This document shows, in pieces, positions 14,491 through 57,801 of a stretch of DNA of 64,000 nucleotides (position 1 is its first letter; the number at the start of each line of letters is the position of its first letter). This stretch comes from an uncultured Candidatus Saccharibacteria bacterium (GTDB lineage Bacteria; Patescibacteriota; Minisyncoccia; UBA6257; 2-01-FULL-56-20). The stretch is from contig CAYHXC010000003.1 of assembly GCA_964360585.1 (NCBI GenBank), forward strand, positions 18,113 through 82,112, written 5' to 3'. A program made the position numbers and the translations under genes. Under the pieces are notes generated by a model. The model searched no databases and was not told where the DNA came from. It saw nothing but the letters and a program-made list of their open reading frames with translations.

Positions 14491-14634
14491 GATGAATCCC
14501 CACACCTAATCGGGAAATATTATTAAAGAAATAGAAATCATGATGCTAACCACGTCAAAAATAAAAAGGTTGTCTATAGGGTCGAGAGCTGGTCGCATGG
14601 TTGCGACCGTTCCCGATTAGGTGTGGGGATGAAA
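14491..14634 (+). promoter_or_regulatory. SD/start-codon-sequestering inverted-repeat element, copy 1 (upstream of GT2 gene)
   Basis: left arm GATGAATCCCCACACCTAATCGGGAA (14491-14517) is reverse-complementary to right arm TTCCCGATTAGGTGTGGGGATGAAA (14610-14634), about 21 contiguous bp; right arm contains AGGTG SD and the ATG (14629); about 93-nt spacer with GGTCGCA-TGG-TTGCGACC hairpin. Confidence 0.6.
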
Positions 14635-15381: not shown

Positions 15382-15383
15382 AT

Positions 15384-15489
15384 GATCCCCCCACCTTCAT
15401 CTTAAAATACTCATGTTACTGTTTAAAAAAGTCGTTTATTATAAATTCAAATCCACCTCTTGTGGCGGGTTTAAGGTGGGGGCATGAAA
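15384..15489 (+). promoter_or_regulatory. SD-sequestering inverted-repeat element, copy 4 (weaker; upstream of sugar-phosphotransferase gene)
   Basis: left GATCCCCCCACCTTCATCTTAA (15384-15406) vs right TTAAGGTGGGGGCATGAAA (15471-15489): 10-11 bp core CCCCCACCTT/AAGGTGGGGG; same GGGG-ATG-AAA start context; about 65-nt spacer. Confidence 0.4.
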
Positions 15490-16894: not shown

Positions 16895-17033
16895 ATGAAT
16901 CCCCACACCTAATGGGAAAAATAGATATAATAGTTGTATAATGACACACATGGTTCTGATTATAAAAGAGGCGGATAGTAACGGGAAGTTCTGCCGCTAC
17001 GCGGCGATTTCCCATTAGGTGGGGGGATGAAAA
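16895..17033 (+). promoter_or_regulatory. SD-sequestering inverted-repeat element, copy 2 (upstream of epimerase gene)
   Basis: left ATGAATCCCCACACCTAATGGGAAA (16895-16920) vs right TTTCCCATTAGGTGGGGGGATGAAA (17008-17033), one mismatch; CGGGAA/TTCCCG of copy 1 replaced by TGGGAAA/TTTCCCA on both arms (compensatory); spacer has TTGTATAAT extended -10-like box and GCCGC-TAC-GCGGC hairpin. Confidence 0.6.
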
Positions 17034-21461: not shown

Positions 21462-22466
21462 ATGGATATACTAGGCATTGTCGGCAAAGCACCGGGAGGA
21501 TTTCCAATTCTCTTTGGAGGGACGCGGCAAACTATCAAGATGTCGCGTGTCCATCAAATGCCACTTGAGGGGCTTGTGGACCCAGCAAACTGCGTCTTCT
21601 GCAAGATGGAACCCGCAAAGGTTGCGGAAGAAACCCATCACATTCCGGGCGTTGTGGAACCCAGAGGCTGGCGAAGACTGAAGAACGCCTTCACCCCACA
21701 CCCGGATCACCGCCTGATCATTCCGGAGATCTGCTGGTCTCCGGGCGATCTTCAGGAGTGGGGAGGCACCAGCGGCTTGTACTCTGCCCTCATCATGGCA
21801 GCGGCCGAAGCGGGCGATGGGAACGAGAAGGTGTTCCTTGTAAACGTCGGTAAGTCAGCCGGACAAAACCAAGGGCATCCCCATATGCACGTTTTCAGTG
21901 GCATCATCGAAGGCCATCGGGGCATTGAATCAACCTCCGATTTCGCTACAAAAGCAACCCACGTGGCAAGCGACAACTCCTTTGACATATTTGCCGCGGG
22001 AATTCATTCCGGAGAATGCCAAATCCTCCCCCGCGAGAGCGACTTCGACCTAAAGAAGACACTCAACCTGCATGCACTGGCTTCAGCAATGAGCCACCTC
22101 GTGAGACGTTGCAATCGCGCTTTCGCAAGCGAGCCCATGCCGATCTTCGTCGACGTGGCAACAAGGCAAGCAGTGGTCTCTCAAGCCATGAAGCCGGATC
22201 AGGTTGCAATTTTGAATGAGCGCTCCCTGAATGGCGAGTTGAAGTTCGAGCTCCGCCAGCTTCCCCCGCCCTGGAGTATGGCTGTTCGAGTGAGCGGCGA
22301 AGGCAAGCTGCTCTATGCCAGCTACGCCCCTGACCTCCACTGTGGTAGCGCTCTGGAACGATGCGTTTCGATCTTCGAGCGGGTTCCTTTCGTCTTGCCC
22401 TGGCCTCACGAAATGACCGCCGAACATCTCCGATCGTTCTATAAATCTCAACCGCTCCGTCCTTAG
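21462..22466 (+). CDS. HIT-superfamily domain protein fused to C-terminal domain of unknown function (GC-rich gene)
   Basis: 334 aa; N-terminal CVFCK, HRLIIPE, NVGKSAGQNQGHPHMHVF (HxHxH histidine triad); C-terminal ~170 aa unrecognised; visibly higher GC than neighbours. Confidence 0.45.
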   Translation: MDILGIVGKAPGGFPILFGGTRQTIKMSRVHQMPLEGLVDPANCVFCKMEPAKVAEETHHIPGVVEPRGWRRLKNAFTPHPDHRLIIPEICWSPGDLQEWGGTSGLYSALIMAAAEAGDGNEKVFLVNVGKSAGQNQGHPHMHVFSGIIEGHRGIESTSDFATKATHVASDNSFDIFAAGIHSGECQILPRESDFDLKKTLNLHALASAMSHLVRRCNRAFASEPMPIFVDVATRQAVVSQAMKPDQVAILNERSLNGELKFELRQLPPPWSMAVRVSGEGKLLYASYAPDLHCGSALERCVSIFERVPFVLPWPHEMTAEHLRSFYKSQPLRP

Positions 22467-28967: not shown

Positions 28968-29121
28968 AATAACGTATTCATACTAACTCAGATTCCCGCG
29001 AAGCGAAAGTTCTATCTTGGCTCGAAATAATTTGAAATAGTAACTTACTTTATATGTCACTCTATTGTGTAAGGTAGCACACAGGAACATAAAGATTGAC
29101 CGGAGAAGTTCGTCAACTGGC

Positions 29122-29394
29122 TAGAACCCATCTCAAAAATATATCAAGTCGCGTTTCGTCTGTTTTCCCGATTACGCAAGGCGCCGCTTCTCGAAGGTGT
29201 ACTTTGCGTACTCCGAGAAAGCGGCAACACAGCGTATCGGAAAAACAGACAAAACCCTTGGGGATAGGACTCCCGAACGCGATACCAGTGTCACTTCGGA
29301 GCTCAATGTGCCGCGAGCACACCTTCGTTCTTGTTTCGCGGTATCGCATTCAGGAGTCGATATCGCGACTGCTATATTTTTGAGATGGGTTCTA
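29122..29394. mobile_element. MITE-like palindromic element, copy A (22-bp perfect TIRs, TA flanks)
   Basis: TAGAACCCATCTCAAAAATATA at 29122-29143 is the exact reverse complement of 29373-29394; internal long imperfect palindrome; about 98% identical to 47338-47611; TA dinucleotide on both flanks; no credible ORF (ORF-track ORFs 29096/29113/29197 are translations of the repeat). Confidence 0.6.
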
Positions 29395-30349
29395 TGCTCT
29401 TGTCGGCTTCGATCATCTTCTTCACTCCGTCTTCAAGACTGTATTTCGGCCGCCACGAAAAGACACAGAACGTCTTGGCCATATCCGCCGCCTGACAACC
29501 ACTATCATGCGGGGGTTGTTCTAGACTACCCCAAAGAACTTTGCTTTTGGAACCGGTTTGTTTGATGACCAGATCCACAAGCTCGGCAAGCGTCACCGCC
29601 TGGCCGGAGGCGAGGTTAAATATTTCGCCTTTTTGAGCGGCGCTCTTTTCCATCGCTTCTACTAAAATCTCGATAACGTCACTGATAAAAATAAGATCTC
29701 TATTTACTGCCGGACTGGTGAGGCGAATATCCTCATTTCTCAGCGATGCACTAACTAGAACTTCCATAAGCTTCCCCCTTTCCATACCAGGTCCGTAGGG
29801 CGTAAAGATGCGAAACACCGTAATGGGTTTGCCGAAGGCATCCGCGAATGCTTGGCAGTAGAGAGAGGCTGTGAGTTTGGCTAAACCATAGGGGACCGTT
29901 GGTTCACACTGATTACGTTCCTGAAGTGGAGCTTTTTTGATCCCATACTCTAATGAACTACCGGCCTGAATGAAAAATTGGTAGTTGTCCTCACGAAGAG
30001 CCTGGAGAAGCCAGATAGTCCCAAGGGTATTGACCCGAATGAACTCTTCCGCGGATGTTTCACTATCTATGCGGGTGAGACGAGCGGCCAGATGAAAGAC
30101 GCCGCGCGGATGGAGACCGTGCAAAGCTTTCTCGACCTCTACAGGGTTCGCAATATCGCCCATGCGAACTTCTAAACTCGGCAAGAGATCCTTGATTCTC
30201 CGCACATCCGAATCTGGCTGAAGCAGGATCGCCACCCGATGACCATCACGCACCAAGCGACGTACCAGATGAGACCCAATAAAACCGGAAGCACCCGTCA
30301 CTAGAATGGGCGGCTTCATACCGTTCTCTATCTCCACATTGGTTGCCAT
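29372..30349 (-). CDS. NAD-dependent epimerase/dehydratase (extended SDR)
   Basis: 325 aa; ILVTGASGFIGSHLVRRL; YGLAKLTASLY (YxxxK); 3' end overlaps TIR of MITE-like copy A. Confidence 0.75.
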   Translation of the reverse strand: MATNVEIENGMKPPILVTGASGFIGSHLVRRLVRDGHRVAILLQPDSDVRRIKDLLPSLEVRMGDIANPVEVEKALHGLHPRGVFHLAARLTRIDSETSAEEFIRVNTLGTIWLLQALREDNYQFFIQAGSSLEYGIKKAPLQERNQCEPTVPYGLAKLTASLYCQAFADAFGKPITVFRIFTPYGPGMERGKLMEVLVSASLRNEDIRLTSPAVNRDLIFISDVIEILVEAMEKSAAQKGEIFNLASGQAVTLAELVDLVIKQTGSKSKVLWGSLEQPPHDSGCQAADMAKTFCVFSWRPKYSLEDGVKKMIEADKSIEPISKI

Positions 30350-31476: not shown

Positions 31477-32544
31477 TCAACGCACACCACCACGTAGATA
31501 CATAATTCCCGTGCGTACGAACAAGCGGATTTTTTTGAACGCGACCCAGATACGCCAGACGATGGGATAGATACCATACTTTCTGGCGAAATATACGTCC
31601 ATAAATTTTCTGTACCTCTCCCCTTTCCAGGGAGTCATCTTCACATAACGAAGATAGTCGGCATGAAATGGCATGGCTGAGAAGAAGTACCAGGGCTTGC
31701 CACCTCCCGAGTAATGGACGATGAGTGGATCGGGAACACCAAGCTTATCGGCTATATCGGTGATGAGATTGTAACGTGGTGGTAACTCGAGGCAGTCTCC
31801 CCACAGAACGATGTTCAAGGCGTCTTGGTCATGATAGGAGAGTTTGTTCGGGTGCGCCGTGATAATATCGAGAGCTTGGTCTTGGACAGCAAGGTTTCGC
31901 CAGCGTTCGACATCAACAAGCATAATCCCCGAATTAAAGTAAAACGTGGAAGTCGGCGGCGGCGTCACACCGACTGCTTGAGCGAGAGCGCGTAAGTGGT
32001 TCATCTTGTAATCCGGATCAGGATCGGCCACCACCCCCATGGTTTTACCTTGTAGATCCAGATTATAAAATTCCGCGATGTCTCCCCGGACAACCGTATC
32101 GACATCGAGGTTGATGGCCTTACGACAAGTCAGTGGAAGAATTTGACCCAAGGCCAGACGGTGATAGTTTTGGATGGGTAGTCGATAGTGTCCAGCCAGT
32201 TTATGTATAGGAACCTTACCAAAATATTCTTCGTTTGGCGTAACATACTGAATGGAAAAACCATATCGCTTTTCGAGTACATGCAACCGTTCTTTGCTCC
32301 GATCGGAAAGCCCTGAATCAATAATGTAGATGTCGATCGAGTAGTCACCCTTCTTGTTCTCAAAGAGCGAGCAGAGACAGGTGCCCAGGAGGACAGCGTA
32401 GCGATCATCACACGATAGAATAATGGGGATTGATTTCATAGCAATTAATAATGGTCCAATTATACACCCCGAAGTGACACTAAACAATCTCCCAGAGCTC
32501 ATCTCAAAAATAGATCCGTCGCGTTCATCCTCAGTTTTTATCAT
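31477..32544 (-). CDS. glycosyltransferase family 8 (LPS galactosyl/glucosyltransferase-like)
   Basis: 355 aa; IPIILSCDDRYAVLLGTCLCSLFEN...IYIIDSGLS...AINLDVDTVV (DxD) ...FNSGIMLVDVERW. Confidence 0.65.
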   Translation of the reverse strand: MIKTEDERDGSIFEMSSGRLFSVTSGCIIGPLLIAMKSIPIILSCDDRYAVLLGTCLCSLFENKKGDYSIDIYIIDSGLSDRSKERLHVLEKRYGFSIQYVTPNEEYFGKVPIHKLAGHYRLPIQNYHRLALGQILPLTCRKAINLDVDTVVRGDIAEFYNLDLQGKTMGVVADPDPDYKMNHLRALAQAVGVTPPPTSTFYFNSGIMLVDVERWRNLAVQDQALDIITAHPNKLSYHDQDALNIVLWGDCLELPPRYNLITDIADKLGVPDPLIVHYSGGGKPWYFFSAMPFHADYLRYVKMTPWKGERYRKFMDVYFARKYGIYPIVWRIWVAFKKIRLFVRTGIMYLRGGVR

Positions 32545-32813
32545 CCACCGAGGCAGGACGAGGAGACATAGGCTTTGTCTAGACTCCGAGGAGTAACGAT
32601 GGTGGTGATAAAAACTGAGAGAACCGAAGGATAGGAAGAAATGATTCGAATATGTCGTTGCTGCGTTCTCGATGTATCTTTGGATACACCTTCGAACTTG
32701 CGCCTCGTCTTCGAGTCATTTCTTCTCTATCGCGACAGGGTATATTTTTGAGATGAGCTCTTGATTGGTTAAATCCGACAGAGGAACTATAATATAACAG
32801 TACAAAATGAACT

Positions 32814-55921: not shown

Positions 55922-55956
55922 AACCGAACACATCTGTGTTCGGTTTTTTCATTTTT
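55922..55956 (+). terminator. rho-independent terminator (AACCGAACACA-TCT-TGTGTTCGGTT + TTTTCATTTTT)
   Basis: 11-bp stem, 3-nt loop, T-tract; immediately after the 36-bp array, orientation implies plus-strand transcription of the array. Confidence 0.8.
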
Positions 55957-56007
55957 AGCTAAACATTCTCTTTTCCGATACAATTAAGTAACAAACTCAA
56001 TGCCGAA

Positions 56008-56145
56008 ATCCCCTCACCTCATGAGAAATGAGTTGTTGGGAGCTTATTTGTCCACGCACGAAACTATGACTACACAAGAGTCGAAAAATATACCTAGATT
56101 CGGTCGCTTTCAAGCGACGGTTTCTCATTAGGTGTGGGGATGAAA
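56008..56145 (+). promoter_or_regulatory. SD-sequestering inverted-repeat element, copy 3 (upstream of gpmI)
   Basis: left ATCCCCTCACCTCATGAGAAA (56008-56028) pairs with right TTTCTCATTAGGTGTGGGGATGAAA (56121-56145) at 17 of 19 positions; GAGAAA/TTTCTC replaces GGGAA/TTCCC of copies 1-2 on both arms; about 92-nt spacer with GGTCGC-TTTCAA-GCGACG hairpin; right arm holds SD and ATG 56140. Confidence 0.55.
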
Positions 56146-57669
56146 CCCGTAATGGTCTTAATTGTGCTCGACGGCTGGGGAATCGGAAATCACGATGCCT
56201 CCAACCCGATGCGCCAGGCCAAAATGCCGACGTTTGACTGGCTGCGCGAGCATTTTCCCATGACCAGTCTCCAGGCTTCCGGAATTTCCGTCGGTCTCCC
56301 CTGGGGCGAAACCTCAAATAGCGAGGTCGGTCACCTGACGATCGGCGCCGGGAAAGTTATTTATCAGTACTATCCGCGCATTATTCTCGGCATTCGCGAC
56401 CAGAGTTTTTTTGCGAACGAAGCCTTGCTCGGCGCCTGTGAGCATGCGCGCAAAAATAACTCGGCCGTAAATCTGATGGGGCTTCTCACTAAGGGAAATG
56501 TCCATGCTTCGCTTGAGCACATGCTGGCCTTAATCAAGCTCGTCGAAGATCAGAAAGTAAAATACAAAGTGCACATCTGGTCGGACGGCAAAGACAGTCC
56601 GCCGGGTACGTTTACTGAATTTTTCAAAGCGGTGCCTAAAGATAAACTGGCGAGCATAACCGGGCGCTACTACGCCATGGATCACGCTAAGAATTGGCGG
56701 AACACCGAACGAGCCTACCAGGGCTTCACGAGCGAAGCGGCCGAGCTCGTGACCGACGTACAACCGACGCTCGATAATTTGCGCGAACAAAAACTTTCTG
56801 AAGAATTTATTCCGCCGCTCCGTTTTGGTCCGGGCGCGCCAATCCAGGATAACGAAGCAATTATTTTTTGGAACTTCCGCGAAGATGGCGTTCGTCAGTT
56901 GACTGAAGCGTTTCTCATTCCGGACTTCTCCATGTTTCCGGTCAAAAAATTTGAGAATCTGCACATCGTCACCATGACTCGGTACGAAGATCATTTCACC
57001 GTGCCCGTGGCCTATCCGCCTGATGAAGTAAAAAATCCTCTGGGAAAAGTACTCTCGGACAATAATGTGAGCCAGCTCCGCCTCGCCGAAACCTATAAAT
57101 ACGCGCACGTTACTTATTTTTTTAACGGCTATGAAGAAAAACCCTATCCCAACGAATACCGCATTCTGATTCCCTCCCTCACTATTCCTCACTTGGCGGA
57201 TAATCCGGAGATGATGGCAACCGCCATTACCGATCGCGCCATCGCCGCCATCCAAGACCACTCCTTTGACTTCATTCTCATTAATTACGCGAATGGCGAC
57301 ATGATCGCCCACACCGGAAATTTCAATGCGGGCGTGAAGGCGGCCGAAATTATCGATCGCGAGATCGGCCGAATTTTAAAAGTTGCCTTGGCCACGCCGG
57401 CCACCGTCCTTATTACCGCTGATCACGGCAACTTGGAAGAGATGTACAATCCCTTAACCGGTCGGTACGAAACCCAACACGATCCCAATCCCGTTCCATG
57501 TTATATTTTCGGCCCCGGCCTCGAAGGAAAAAAATTTATCAACCAGGACACCTACGAAAAAGAAACGCTTGGTATTCTTTCTGATGTCGCACCGACCATT
57601 CTCCGCATTCTTGGCATCGTACCTCCGCCGGACATGACGGGGCATAATCTTCTCGAAAAACTCGTCTGA
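56134..57669 (+). CDS. gpmI: 2,3-bisphosphoglycerate-independent phosphoglycerate mutase
   Basis: 511 aa; (M)KPVMVLIVLDGWGIG..., SGISVGLPWGETSNSEVGHLTIGAG, C-terminal ITADHGN metalloenzyme motif. Confidence 0.9.
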   Translation: MGMKPVMVLIVLDGWGIGNHDASNPMRQAKMPTFDWLREHFPMTSLQASGISVGLPWGETSNSEVGHLTIGAGKVIYQYYPRIILGIRDQSFFANEALLGACEHARKNNSAVNLMGLLTKGNVHASLEHMLALIKLVEDQKVKYKVHIWSDGKDSPPGTFTEFFKAVPKDKLASITGRYYAMDHAKNWRNTERAYQGFTSEAAELVTDVQPTLDNLREQKLSEEFIPPLRFGPGAPIQDNEAIIFWNFREDGVRQLTEAFLIPDFSMFPVKKFENLHIVTMTRYEDHFTVPVAYPPDEVKNPLGKVLSDNNVSQLRLAETYKYAHVTYFFNGYEEKPYPNEYRILIPSLTIPHLADNPEMMATAITDRAIAAIQDHSFDFILINYANGDMIAHTGNFNAGVKAAEIIDREIGRILKVALATPATVLITADHGNLEEMYNPLTGRYETQHDPNPVPCYIFGPGLEGKKFINQDTYEKETLGILSDVAPTILRILGIVPPPDMTGHNLLEKLV

Positions 57670-57789
57670 CACTGAATCACAAAACGCGAACTACTTTGTT
57701 ACTGACTGCGCTTCGCCCTCGCTGTATGCTATACACCTCGGTTACGATGCTCGTCAAAGCCTCGTATTTCATCGTTTTGTGATTCAGTG
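57670..57789 (+). promoter_or_regulatory. 17-bp perfect inverted repeat (CACTGAATCACAAAACG ... CGTTTTGTGATTCAGTG) flanking an 86-bp spacer between gpmI and downstream gene
   Basis: left arm starts at the last base of the gpmI stop codon (57670-57686); right arm 57773-57789, 12 nt before ATG 57802; spacer has a reverse-oriented TTGACG-18-TATAGC promoter-like pair. Confidence 0.55.
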
Positions 57790-57801
57790 TAGAATACGAA
57801 T

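Follow-up and report, generated by a model that had tools for sequence, protein, structure and literature searches.

A probable mobile element on the start codon of gpmI in a Candidatus Saccharibacteria genome, and its GIY-YIG-associated relatives

Why should a gene begin inside one arm of a long inverted repeat? The question is raised by gpmI, which encodes a 2,3-bisphosphoglycerate-independent phosphoglycerate mutase in an uncultured Candidatus Saccharibacteria bacterium. The DNA analyzed, here called the window, is a stretch of 64,000 nucleotides (nt) from contig CAYHXC010000003.1 (positions 18,113 to 82,112), and its source is groundwater of the Hainich, sampled as a metagenome; coordinates below are those of the window and, unless stated otherwise, features lie on the plus strand. 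A preliminary description took the repeat for an element that hides the Shine-Dalgarno (SD) sequence of four genes. The comparisons described here point elsewhere: the element in front of gpmI is probably a non-autonomous member, of the kind called MITE (miniature inverted-repeat transposable element), of a palindromic, mobile, GIY-YIG-associated family, and it appears to have inserted exactly on the gpmI start codon.

The element is about 133 bp in size. Its left arm, ATCCCCTCACCTCATGAGAAA, is a terminal inverted repeat at 56008-56028, with the repeat proper beginning at the T at 56009; the right arm, TTTCTCATTAGGTGTGGGGAT, lies at 56121-56141 and holds a TAG (56129-56131) and an SD-like AGGTG (56130-56134). 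The gpmI ATG occupies 56140-56142 and is followed by AAA. Its first base is the terminal A of the right arm (56140), and AGGTG sits 5 nt upstream of the codon thus rebuilt. Between the arms is a variable interior (56029-56120), which includes a small GC hairpin, GTCGCTTTCAAGCGAC, at 56103-56118, adjoining the right arm. The flanks carry what comparison with orthologues identifies as a target-site duplication: TGAAA on the right (56141-56145) and a degenerate CGAAA on the left (56004-56008), where orthologues have a single ATGAAA. The arms described earlier are real and lie 92 nt apart, though they are complementary at 19 of 21 positions (the mismatches being U.U and C.U) rather than at 17 of 19. 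The host gene (56140-57669) encodes 509 amino acids (aa) with the Pfam domains Metalloenzyme and iPGM_N, in agreement with its orthologues, and the nearest relatives of the protein are from Parcubacteria/Liptonbacteria.

Is this hairpin peculiar to gpmI? Allowing up to 2 mismatches, the right-arm 16-mer AGGTGNGGGGATGAAA occurs four times in the window against 0.14 expected, a number that none of 100 shuffles reaches. The two-arm pattern ATCCCCNCACCT-N85-115-AGGTGNGGGGAT occurs three times against 0.00 expected, and all four right arms have a left arm 77 to 111 nt upstream. These are four copies of one element, as had been claimed, and three consecutive genes of one glycan operon bear one copy each. 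Copy 1 (14493-14633) has arms at 14496-14516 and 14610-14630, complementary at 21 of 21 positions, between TGAA duplications at 14493-14496 and 14630-14633; it contains a mini upstream open reading frame (uORF) reading MNPHT* (14492-14509) and an internal open reading frame (ORF) at 14540-14620, and its host, of the GT2 family, has its ATG at 14629. Copy 3 (16896-17031), also with TGAA duplications, is built in the same way, with arms at 16899-16919 and 17008-17028 complementary at 20 of 21 positions, MNPHT* at 16895-16912, an internal ORF at 16941-17018, and an NAD epimerase gene whose ATG is at 17027. Copy 2 (15383-15487), 101 nt in length, is degenerate. Its arms are ATCCCCCCACCTT (15385-15397) and AAGGTGGGGGCAT (15473-15485), its duplication is TGA, its left ATG (15382-15384) abuts the upstream stop and opens a uORF reading MIPPPSS*, and its host, a Bac_transf sugar transferase, starts at 15484. 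Two candidates for further degenerate copies, at 21694 and 60758, were examined and set aside as not being elements.

The hosts are thus GT2, Bac_transf, NAD epimerase, and iPGM genes, so the earlier statement that the element is not specific to glycan genes stands. So does the observation that the two arms have changed together and kept their complementarity, since the gpmI copy has GAGAAA/TTTCTC on its two arms where copies 1 and 3 have CGGGAA/TTCCCG and GGGAAA/TTTCCC. As RNA, the gpmI copy is predicted to fold with -49.5 kcal/mol (z = -4.3; none of 200 shuffles as stable), and copies 1 and 3 have z scores of -8.0 and -4.9, the degenerate copy 2 one of -1.7. Could the motif simply be a generic strong ribosome binding site (RBS) with a fortuitous complement upstream, a concern raised in the preliminary description itself? 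AGGTG is indeed complementary to the CACCU of the 16S 3' tail. However, each of the four occurrences in 64 kb comes with a matching arm, 41 of 56 window genes, as crudely called, have no SD-like motif, and AGGTG..GGGG is found only at the four element-bearing genes; this explanation is scarcely credible.

Comparison with related genomes shows what the locus looks like without the element. Four gpmI orthologues (L129-L132), at 84, 80, 79, and 70% identity, share the synteny in which RNase Y diverges from gpmI-holin-SecG-SBP. All four loci read TACAAT-N9-31-ATGAAAcc, with the element absent; the window junction reads TACAATtaagtaacaaactcaatgcCGAAA[TCCCC...GGGGA]TGAAAcc. The TACAAT, found by eye, lies 9 to 31 nt upstream of the gpmI ATG in the four orthologous loci and at 55979-55984 in the window, where it is the likely -10 box of gpmI kept from an element-free ancestor; a two-hexamer promoter scan of the window did not flag it. 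In the element-free orthologues L129 and L131 it comes as near as 9 nt to the ATG, which, together with the window genes without an SD-like motif, suggests leaderless or near-leaderless mRNAs in this lineage. A second case comes from the tldD/pmbA genes of Omnitrophota. They overlap by ATGA in the empty loci L156 and L157 (gcgATGAtcgg), and the filled junction in L079 reads ggcATGA[TCCCCCC-112 nt-GGGGGGA]TGAtcgg. In a third, L081 is filled and L016 and L028 are empty (ATGATT). The closest relative of the L079 pmbA (84% identity) is found at L158:1-56, where ..cacggcagggcgtgggATGA upstream of the ATGA is reminiscent of a right arm in decay; only 52 nt of contig remain in that direction.

How widely is the element dispersed? 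Searches beyond the window yielded further loci in both genomes and metagenomes. A scan of species-representative genomes with the right arm plus ATGAAA gave 11 matches. Five are in genomes outside the candidate phyla radiation, have no left arm, and are chance matches within genes, and all that L003, in a metagenome-assembled genome (MAG) bearing the label Gammaproteobacteria, shows on that side is a degenerate sequence resembling the left arm. In L005, L008, and L011, from Saccharibacteria and Colwellbacteria, a left arm that matches is found no more than about 110 nt away, and the variable position is A-T, G-C, or T-A; in L002 and L010 the left arm lies 279 nt upstream of the right arm. L005 (3700-3775, in a Saccharibacteria MAG) is a minimal version with 33 nt between the shared 15-nt arm cores, or a 21-nt loop with the arm extensions paired, and its flanks extend the palindrome (TTCAT...ATGAA) without a direct duplication. 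Metagenomes were scanned with the same two-arm pattern as the window, whose spacer fixed the range of elements admitted at 109 to 139 nt. This gave at least 116 loci and 108 unique elements including the window copies; the counts given below for the element set (n = 108, of which 47 are GC-type and 30 to 31 AT-type) are among the matches listed in that scan.

The flanks of these elements bear the mark of insertion. With TCCCC...GGGGA counted as the repeat, direct repeats of 2 to 5 nt (3 to 5 nt in 98 cases) flank 99 of 108 elements; when flanks are randomly re-paired, about 51 of 108 have one and 57 have none. The duplications are TGA (51 elements), TGAA (23), TTTA (11), TAAA (7), and TGAAA (2), with TGGA, TGTA, TTGA, TTA, and TA seen once each, and rare variants co-vary in the direct sense (TGGA/TGGA, TGTA/TGTA). 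T..A was at one point considered the target motif of the element and was withdrawn, because these bases are imposed by the scan pattern. L159, chosen by its protein and not by this pattern, has the repeat CCCCCACACCTAATCAGT and a CACA duplication. The co-variation of the flanks and the empty sites are unaffected by the outer A/T bias of the search, and the position of all four window copies on start codons is free of it as well, since they were found using CCCCNCACCT alone; the window offers 74 intergenic TGAA/TTCA sites and 17 ATGAA starts. The left flanks of L049 and L100 contain, upstream of the ATG, a degenerate likeness of the right arm (TTAGGTGT....GGGATGA), which suggests that one start codon was hit repeatedly or that insertions are nested there.

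What lies between the flanks varies in an instructive way. The terminal inverted repeats, [T/C]CCCC(N)CACCT..., have arms of 17 to 21 nt. Arm positions 7 and 13 to 16, left free in the pattern, are Watson-Crick pairs in 86 to 95% of elements with three or four pair types (position 17, 70%), compared with 30 to 45% for re-paired arms, and G.U pairs make up 0 to 5% at these covarying positions. Since G.U pairs are nearly absent, the complementarity looks like DNA inverted-repeat identity rather than RNA selection. The interior is not conserved across the family; the short elements hold only short, non-conserved ORFs, and most copies have a small hairpin beside the right arm, its sequence differing from copy to copy. 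Within the set, 37 pairs of elements at different loci have interiors 76 to 99% identical, and in a 112-nt Omnitrophota family six such pairs, up to 94% identical, are oppositely oriented relative to the gene.

These observations bear on the proposal that the element is a dedicated cis-regulatory RNA, whose helix sequesters the SD sequence and AUG, opens with temperature, growth phase, or some factor, and co-regulates the genes that carry it. The stable helices do include AGGTG and AUG, complementarity survives changes on both arms, the small hairpin beside the right arm recurs, and the motif is not a generic RBS. Set against this are the unconserved interior found in both orientations in one family, the functionally incoherent hosts at more than 100 loci, the orthologous genes without the element, the direct duplications at its flanks, and the near absence of G.U pairs. 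A perfect, GC-rich helix of 21 bp is also far too stable for a thermosensor of the ROSE or fourU kind, and Rfam gave nothing relevant, either for the whole window at gathering thresholds or for the element regions at E <= 1 (a MicF match on the terminator upstream of gpmI is a chance hit). We consider such a regulator very unlikely. What stands of the earlier claim is that, if transcribed, AGGTG and AUG would lie in a long helix; sequestration is plausibly a physical side effect of insertion, with no sign of signal-responsive regulation. Nor is the shared start context ("G M K / M K") regulatory. It consists of the duplicated target TGAA(A) and the terminal A of the repeat.

Might the arms instead bound an invertible segment, a promoter that a recombinase flips to switch glycan genes on and off? 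Upstream of surface-glycan genes the repeats do enclose an AT-rich segment containing TATAAT-like boxes, and both interior orientations occur in one family. But opposite orientations are found only at different loci: in 17 pairs of assemblies from different samples that cover the same locus, none is inverted. The 33 nt between the L005 arm cores are too few for a promoter, the promoter scan found no gene-strand site inside the elements (its one site around gpmI belongs to the opposite strand), and direct duplications, empty sites, and housekeeping hosts are all present. Such a switch is highly improbable.

The reading of the element as MITE-like, mobile DNA is the one that these comparisons favor, and the hosts fit it. 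The GC content of the flanks ranges from 0.27 to 0.74 among Patescibacteria and Omnitrophota. The GC-rich hosts are the Omnitrophota, the TldD/PmbA protein of L079 having 61 to 64% identity to proteins from Omnitrophica MAGs. Of 121 occurrences, 85 have GGGGAT followed by G and a long ORF on one side or more, three of them on both. The preliminary description called for a list of the gene functions controlled; more than 100 loci show no functional coherence. Downstream genes include those for tRNA synthetases, trp and pyr enzymes, IGPS, OMP decarboxylase, DXR, MlaE, BacA, L22, RbfA, NDK, signal peptidase, and glycosyltransferases. Carriage by phages finds no support, as 2.9 million viral contigs gave no match to the short or the long form. 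A study of horizontal gene transfer in groundwater reports GIY-YIG genes among the exchanged genes and traffic between Patescibacteria and Omnitrophota (PMC12455944), which fits the host range seen here.

What could move such elements? A candidate is found between the widely spaced arms of L010/L002 and L055. Here the same arms, 279 to 281 nt apart, enclose an ORF of 86 aa, giving versions of about 290 nt. The ORF starts 6 to 7 nt past the left arm and terminates with the TAG contained in the ATTAGG of the right arm; the host ATG follows 8 nt later. The product of this ORF, 67% identical between L010 and L055, is a GIY-YIG domain (Pfam PF01541, E = 1e-17), with UPF0213 structures 1zg2 (E = 7e-6) and 1ywl (E = 4.5e-3) as the nearest solved relatives, followed by SLX1. 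Homologues with E < 1e-10 number 406, all of 83 to 131 aa and most of 84 to 92 aa, from Colwell-, Berkel-, Woese-, and Gottesmanbacteria, WOR-1, Margulisbacteria, and Omnitrophica, and the catalytic residues are conserved, with Y5, Y16, G18, R26, H30, and E50 invariant in 33 homologues.

Is the association of nuclease and repeat more than a product of the search? Five GIY-YIG loci picked by protein homology only all have CCCCACACC/GGTGTGGGG inverted repeats beside the gene. In L151 and L159 perfect 18-bp repeats surround the ORF, whose stop codon in L151 is within the right repeat. L133 has 16-bp repeats spanning about 520 nt and ending 3 nt before the ftsK ATG. L143 has a complete short element upstream of the ORF, and at L155:941-1503 three tandem hairpin elements with CCCCACACCAACTT arms precede a Margulisbacteria GIY-YIG gene, the last of them supplying the ATG of the gene. 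The nuclease gene therefore lies between inverted copies of the dispersed repeat in L010/L002, L055, L133, L151, and L159. The short elements preserve a trace of the coding form as well. A 122-nt element, L030/L045, retains the last 21 codons of the nuclease (85% identity by tblastn; hmmsearch E = 1e-6), and hmmsearch finds the same C terminus in the related short elements L025 (E = 2e-3) and L057 (E = 0.16). Because this C terminus is retained, the L030/L025/L057 subfamily appears to consist of internal-deletion derivatives.

An alternative is that these are ordinary MITEs moved in trans by a DDE transposase of the IS5-, IS1380-, or IS630-like kind, with the GIY-YIG gene a passenger or a frequent target. 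Terminal repeats with duplications of 3 to 5 bp are typical of DDE transposition, the complete short elements of L143 and L155 lie upstream of the GIY-YIG gene as they would at any host gene, and free-standing GIY-YIG genes without these repeats also exist. However, about 1 Mb of fetched loci contained no long unit with a transposase bounded by these repeats, at least five lineages, diverged to 60 to 70% identity, have the GIY-YIG ORF taking up the interval that perfect repeats enclose, the stop codon lies inside the right repeat in three lineages (L010/L002, L055, and L151), and one MITE subfamily is an internal deletion of the GIY-YIG unit. We regard the DDE explanation as unlikely. The nuclease may be the mobilizing enzyme of the palindromic family; an SLX1-type specificity for DNA structures would, by analogy, suit hairpin or cruciform ends.

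How does a gene survive an insertion on its start codon? The GC-type elements of Omnitrophota suggest an answer. Their left flank ends in ATG (twice in GTG) immediately before ATCCCCCCACCT, and 31 of 47 have a left TGA that also terminates an upstream gene of 80 or more codons. Element length is 3n+1 in 28 of 31 sequence clusters (P = 6e-11). The frame of the left ATG is open throughout in 42 of 47, compared with 18 of 47 for a control frame; the TGA of the regenerated ATGA is precisely where it closes in 37 of 47. To judge by sequence, then, the GC-type element sits inside an ATGA stop/start overlap and its "relay" ORF re-creates the overlap at the far end, which it does in either orientation (L024, L044, and L051 versus L041, L079, and L117). 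The peptides, MIPPP...Q/E-VGG, are otherwise unconserved; they always start with MIPPP because the repeat reads ATC CCC CCA CCT (as in L079, L024, and L041). If ribosomes stall at these prolines, on the left arm, the helix might be kept open or the relay might come to depend on elongation factor P (EF-P).

The AT-type elements of Patescibacteria appear to reach the same end differently. In 23 of 31, the left ATG opens a five-codon ORF (ATG AAT CCC CAC ACC TAA, encoding MNPHT or one-residue variants), and the reading frame closed by the right-arm TAG runs without a stop over a median of 31 codons (at least 20 codons in 26 of 30), compared with 11 to 13 for the other frames. Relay-type ORFs are present in window copies 1 and 3 and in the gpmI copy. 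For gpmI, the candidate is an ORF of 43 codons at 56000-56131 (predicted translation MPKSPHLM...ATVSH*), which begins 8 nt ahead of the left arm and is closed by the right-arm TAG, with 8 nt separating the TAG from the gpmI ATG.

Taken together, these features allow a mechanism to be proposed. An element would insert on the gpmI start codon with a target duplication of 3 to 5 bp, the mobilizing enzyme perhaps being the 86-aa Slx1-like GIY-YIG nuclease of the full-length relatives. The ATG would be re-created from the terminal A of the right repeat and the duplicated TG, with the repeat supplying AGGTG. Because the likely TACAAT promoter lies upstream of the left arm, both arms would be within the gpmI mRNA, where pairing at 19 of 21 positions could hide the SD sequence and AUG. 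A ribosome translating the ORF at 56000-56131 would unwind the helix and leave the mRNA 8 nt short of the gpmI AUG, resulting in termination-reinitiation or at least in unmasking of the SD sequence. The element's own ORF would then act as the antidote to its helix, making the insertion tolerated rather than regulatory; indeed, the element appears built to be tolerated by the host gene.

Has the host gone further and put the insertion to use? Domestication for translational control might act through RNase III cleavage, uORF coupling, or, in the GC-type, EF-P dependence of the MIPPP uORF. It would account for relay frames kept open where the peptide sequence is not kept and for three consecutive glycan-operon genes with a copy each, and a perfect helix of at least 20 bp is a classical RNase III substrate. 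Yet selection that does no more than purge insertions destroying the host gene should leave these features too, and the hosts are functionally incoherent. Domestication is improbable, to about the same degree as the DDE alternative.

A tolerated insertion by a mobile element explains the gpmI locus best, and several points weigh against this reading or against parts of it. (i) Copy 2 has no relay ORF. (ii) The scan pattern forced an outer A...T, which enriches T..A duplications and ATG-adjacent sites by ascertainment; the share of the family on start codons therefore cannot be read from the scan. L151 is intergenic and L159 lies beside a tRNA-like sequence. (iii) The 64-kb window holds no GIY-YIG gene. 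A remnant in the window copies was sought by eye in the resemblance of KRLSIGS to NKLYIGS; hmmsearch gives E = 43, and none is claimed. (iv) What ties the nuclease to mobilization is association, and the mobility of the elements is read from comparative signatures. (v) The ribosome relay, the pairing of the arms in vivo, and their co-transcription are likewise predictions from sequence.

How does the element compare with known systems? Judged by sequence, it shares several features by which MITEs are recognized: small size, terminal repeats, target duplication, dispersed copies (four in 64 kb), and presence/absence differences. The Correia elements of Neisseria (CREE/NEMIS) are 100 to 150 bp long with terminal repeats of about 20 to 26 bp, and they are co-transcribed, their hairpin being an RNase III substrate that affects expression. 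Together with RUP and ERIC they resemble the elements described here in size, terminal repeats, short duplication, and many dispersed copies near genes. In contrast to the Correia elements, the repeat sequence differs, the duplication is 3 to 5 bp rather than TA, the hosts are Patescibacteria and Omnitrophota, the register on start codons and ATGA overlaps is exact to a single base with an ATG made from the repeat's A and a relay ORF of 3n+1, and the coding version encodes a GIY-YIG nuclease rather than a DDE transposase.

Other systems share single traits. In REPIN-RAYT, the nuclease is present in one or a few copies and the repeats in many, and a small nuclease gene flanked by inverted copies of a dispersed hairpin repeat is common to both; the enzyme here is GIY-YIG (Slx1-like) rather than HUH/Y1, there are target duplications, and the sites are start codons rather than gene ends or terminators. 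The Rickettsia palindromic elements (RPEs) also survive in translated sequence by virtue of length and frame, but they are fused in-frame into the host protein, whereas here a separate small ORF ends at or just before the host start. With ROSE and fourU thermometers, riboswitch platforms, and uORF coupling, the elements share an anti-SD strand that pairs with the SD sequence and AUG and a helix that uORF translation can open; unlike those RNAs, they have no conserved sensor domain, their helix is much longer and perfect, and their origin would be mobile DNA. The seg and mob GIY-YIG genes of T4-like phages and the intron-encoded I-TevI are similarly selfish nuclease genes beside host genes, using host expression signals (PMC2988022). 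Those homing endonucleases have DNA-binding domains and one cognate allele and lack terminal repeats, duplications, and non-coding progeny; the protein described here, of 84 to 92 aa, is a catalytic domain only, and the insertions are at many unrelated genes. Stand-alone Slx1-like proteins (UPF0213; 1zg2, 1ywl) are also minimal GIY-YIG domains, of about 90 to 100 aa, and a 2006 survey treats the prokaryotic ones as vertically inherited repair factors, with no link to repeats or mobility reported (PMC1564403). By architecture, then, the element is a MITE, closest to Correia elements in size and RNA consequences, and its enzyme family, start-codon/ATGA register, and relay design differ from all of the systems compared.

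One may go further, if tentatively. The family may represent a new class of ultra-small autonomous elements, with coding units of about 290 to 520 bp that would be among the smallest coding mobile elements. In this proposal, which is possible though short of probable, an 86-aa GIY-YIG protein recognizes [T/C]CCCC(N)CACC hairpin or repeat ends, the elements spread horizontally among groundwater Patescibacteria, Omnitrophota, Margulisbacteria, and Saganbacteria, and they are adapted to start codons and ATGA overlaps by the regenerated ATG, their own SD sequence, and a 3n+1 relay ORF. The literature searched contains no description of these repeats or of the family; its coverage was incomplete, and an earlier description may exist.

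The surroundings of gpmI contain other features of interest. Downstream, a 122-nt segment (57669-57790), delimited by a perfect 18-nt inverted repeat, ACACTGAATCACAAAACG / CGTTTTGTGATTCAGTGT, fills the gap from the gpmI stop to the next gene. This gap is only 6 to 8 nt in L129-L131, and the genes overlap in L132; as it is short or absent in these orthologous loci, two different palindromic insertions appear to flank gpmI. Upstream, three ORFs (53749-55891) lie between RNase Y and gpmI; in each of the four orthologous loci these two genes are direct, divergent neighbors. The first two of the ORFs, the only ones scanned, have no Pfam match. The last ORF, at 55565-55891, overlaps loose repeat units of about 40 nt with a GAGCGAGCCA core, and TRF finds no tandem array upstream of gpmI. 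A strong terminator-like hairpin follows this ORF on the plus strand (55922-55945).

A second family of elements, of about 270 to 295 bp with terminal inverted repeats of 24 to 36 nt (..AGAACCCATCTCAAAAATATAT..), occurs at 29111-29405, 47336-47613, and 32494-32761, in intergenic positions within a large minus-strand glycan cluster. The interiors of those at 29111 and 47336 are nearly identical, and none of the three contains a convincing ORF. Elsewhere, past the GIY-YIG element of L159 (1478-1770), there are apparent 5' and 3' halves of a tRNA (GGGCACATAGCTCAATGGTAGAGC ... GGTTCGAATCCATCTGTGCCCACCA), about 230 nt apart, with an intact tRNA-Ile between them; placement of the L159 element at a tRNA 5' end was considered and was not confirmed by ARAGORN.

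What would all this mean for the bacteria concerned? If the reading is true, a recurrent "regulatory hairpin" of ultra-small groundwater bacteria is selfish DNA, and it should be annotated as such and not as a riboregulator. It would represent a parasite's solution to a genome with almost no non-coding space: a start codon or a 4-nt ATGA overlap serves as the landing site, and the ribosome is handed on. The link to a bare Slx1-type GIY-YIG protein of 86 aa would offer a testable function for the very large family of "hypothetical GIY-YIG nucleases," and, if the nuclease does mobilize the elements, a new class of enzyme would join those of prokaryotic transposition and homing. Finally, the 3n+1 relay ORFs beginning with MIPPP would provide a natural system in which to study termination-reinitiation and polyproline stalling.

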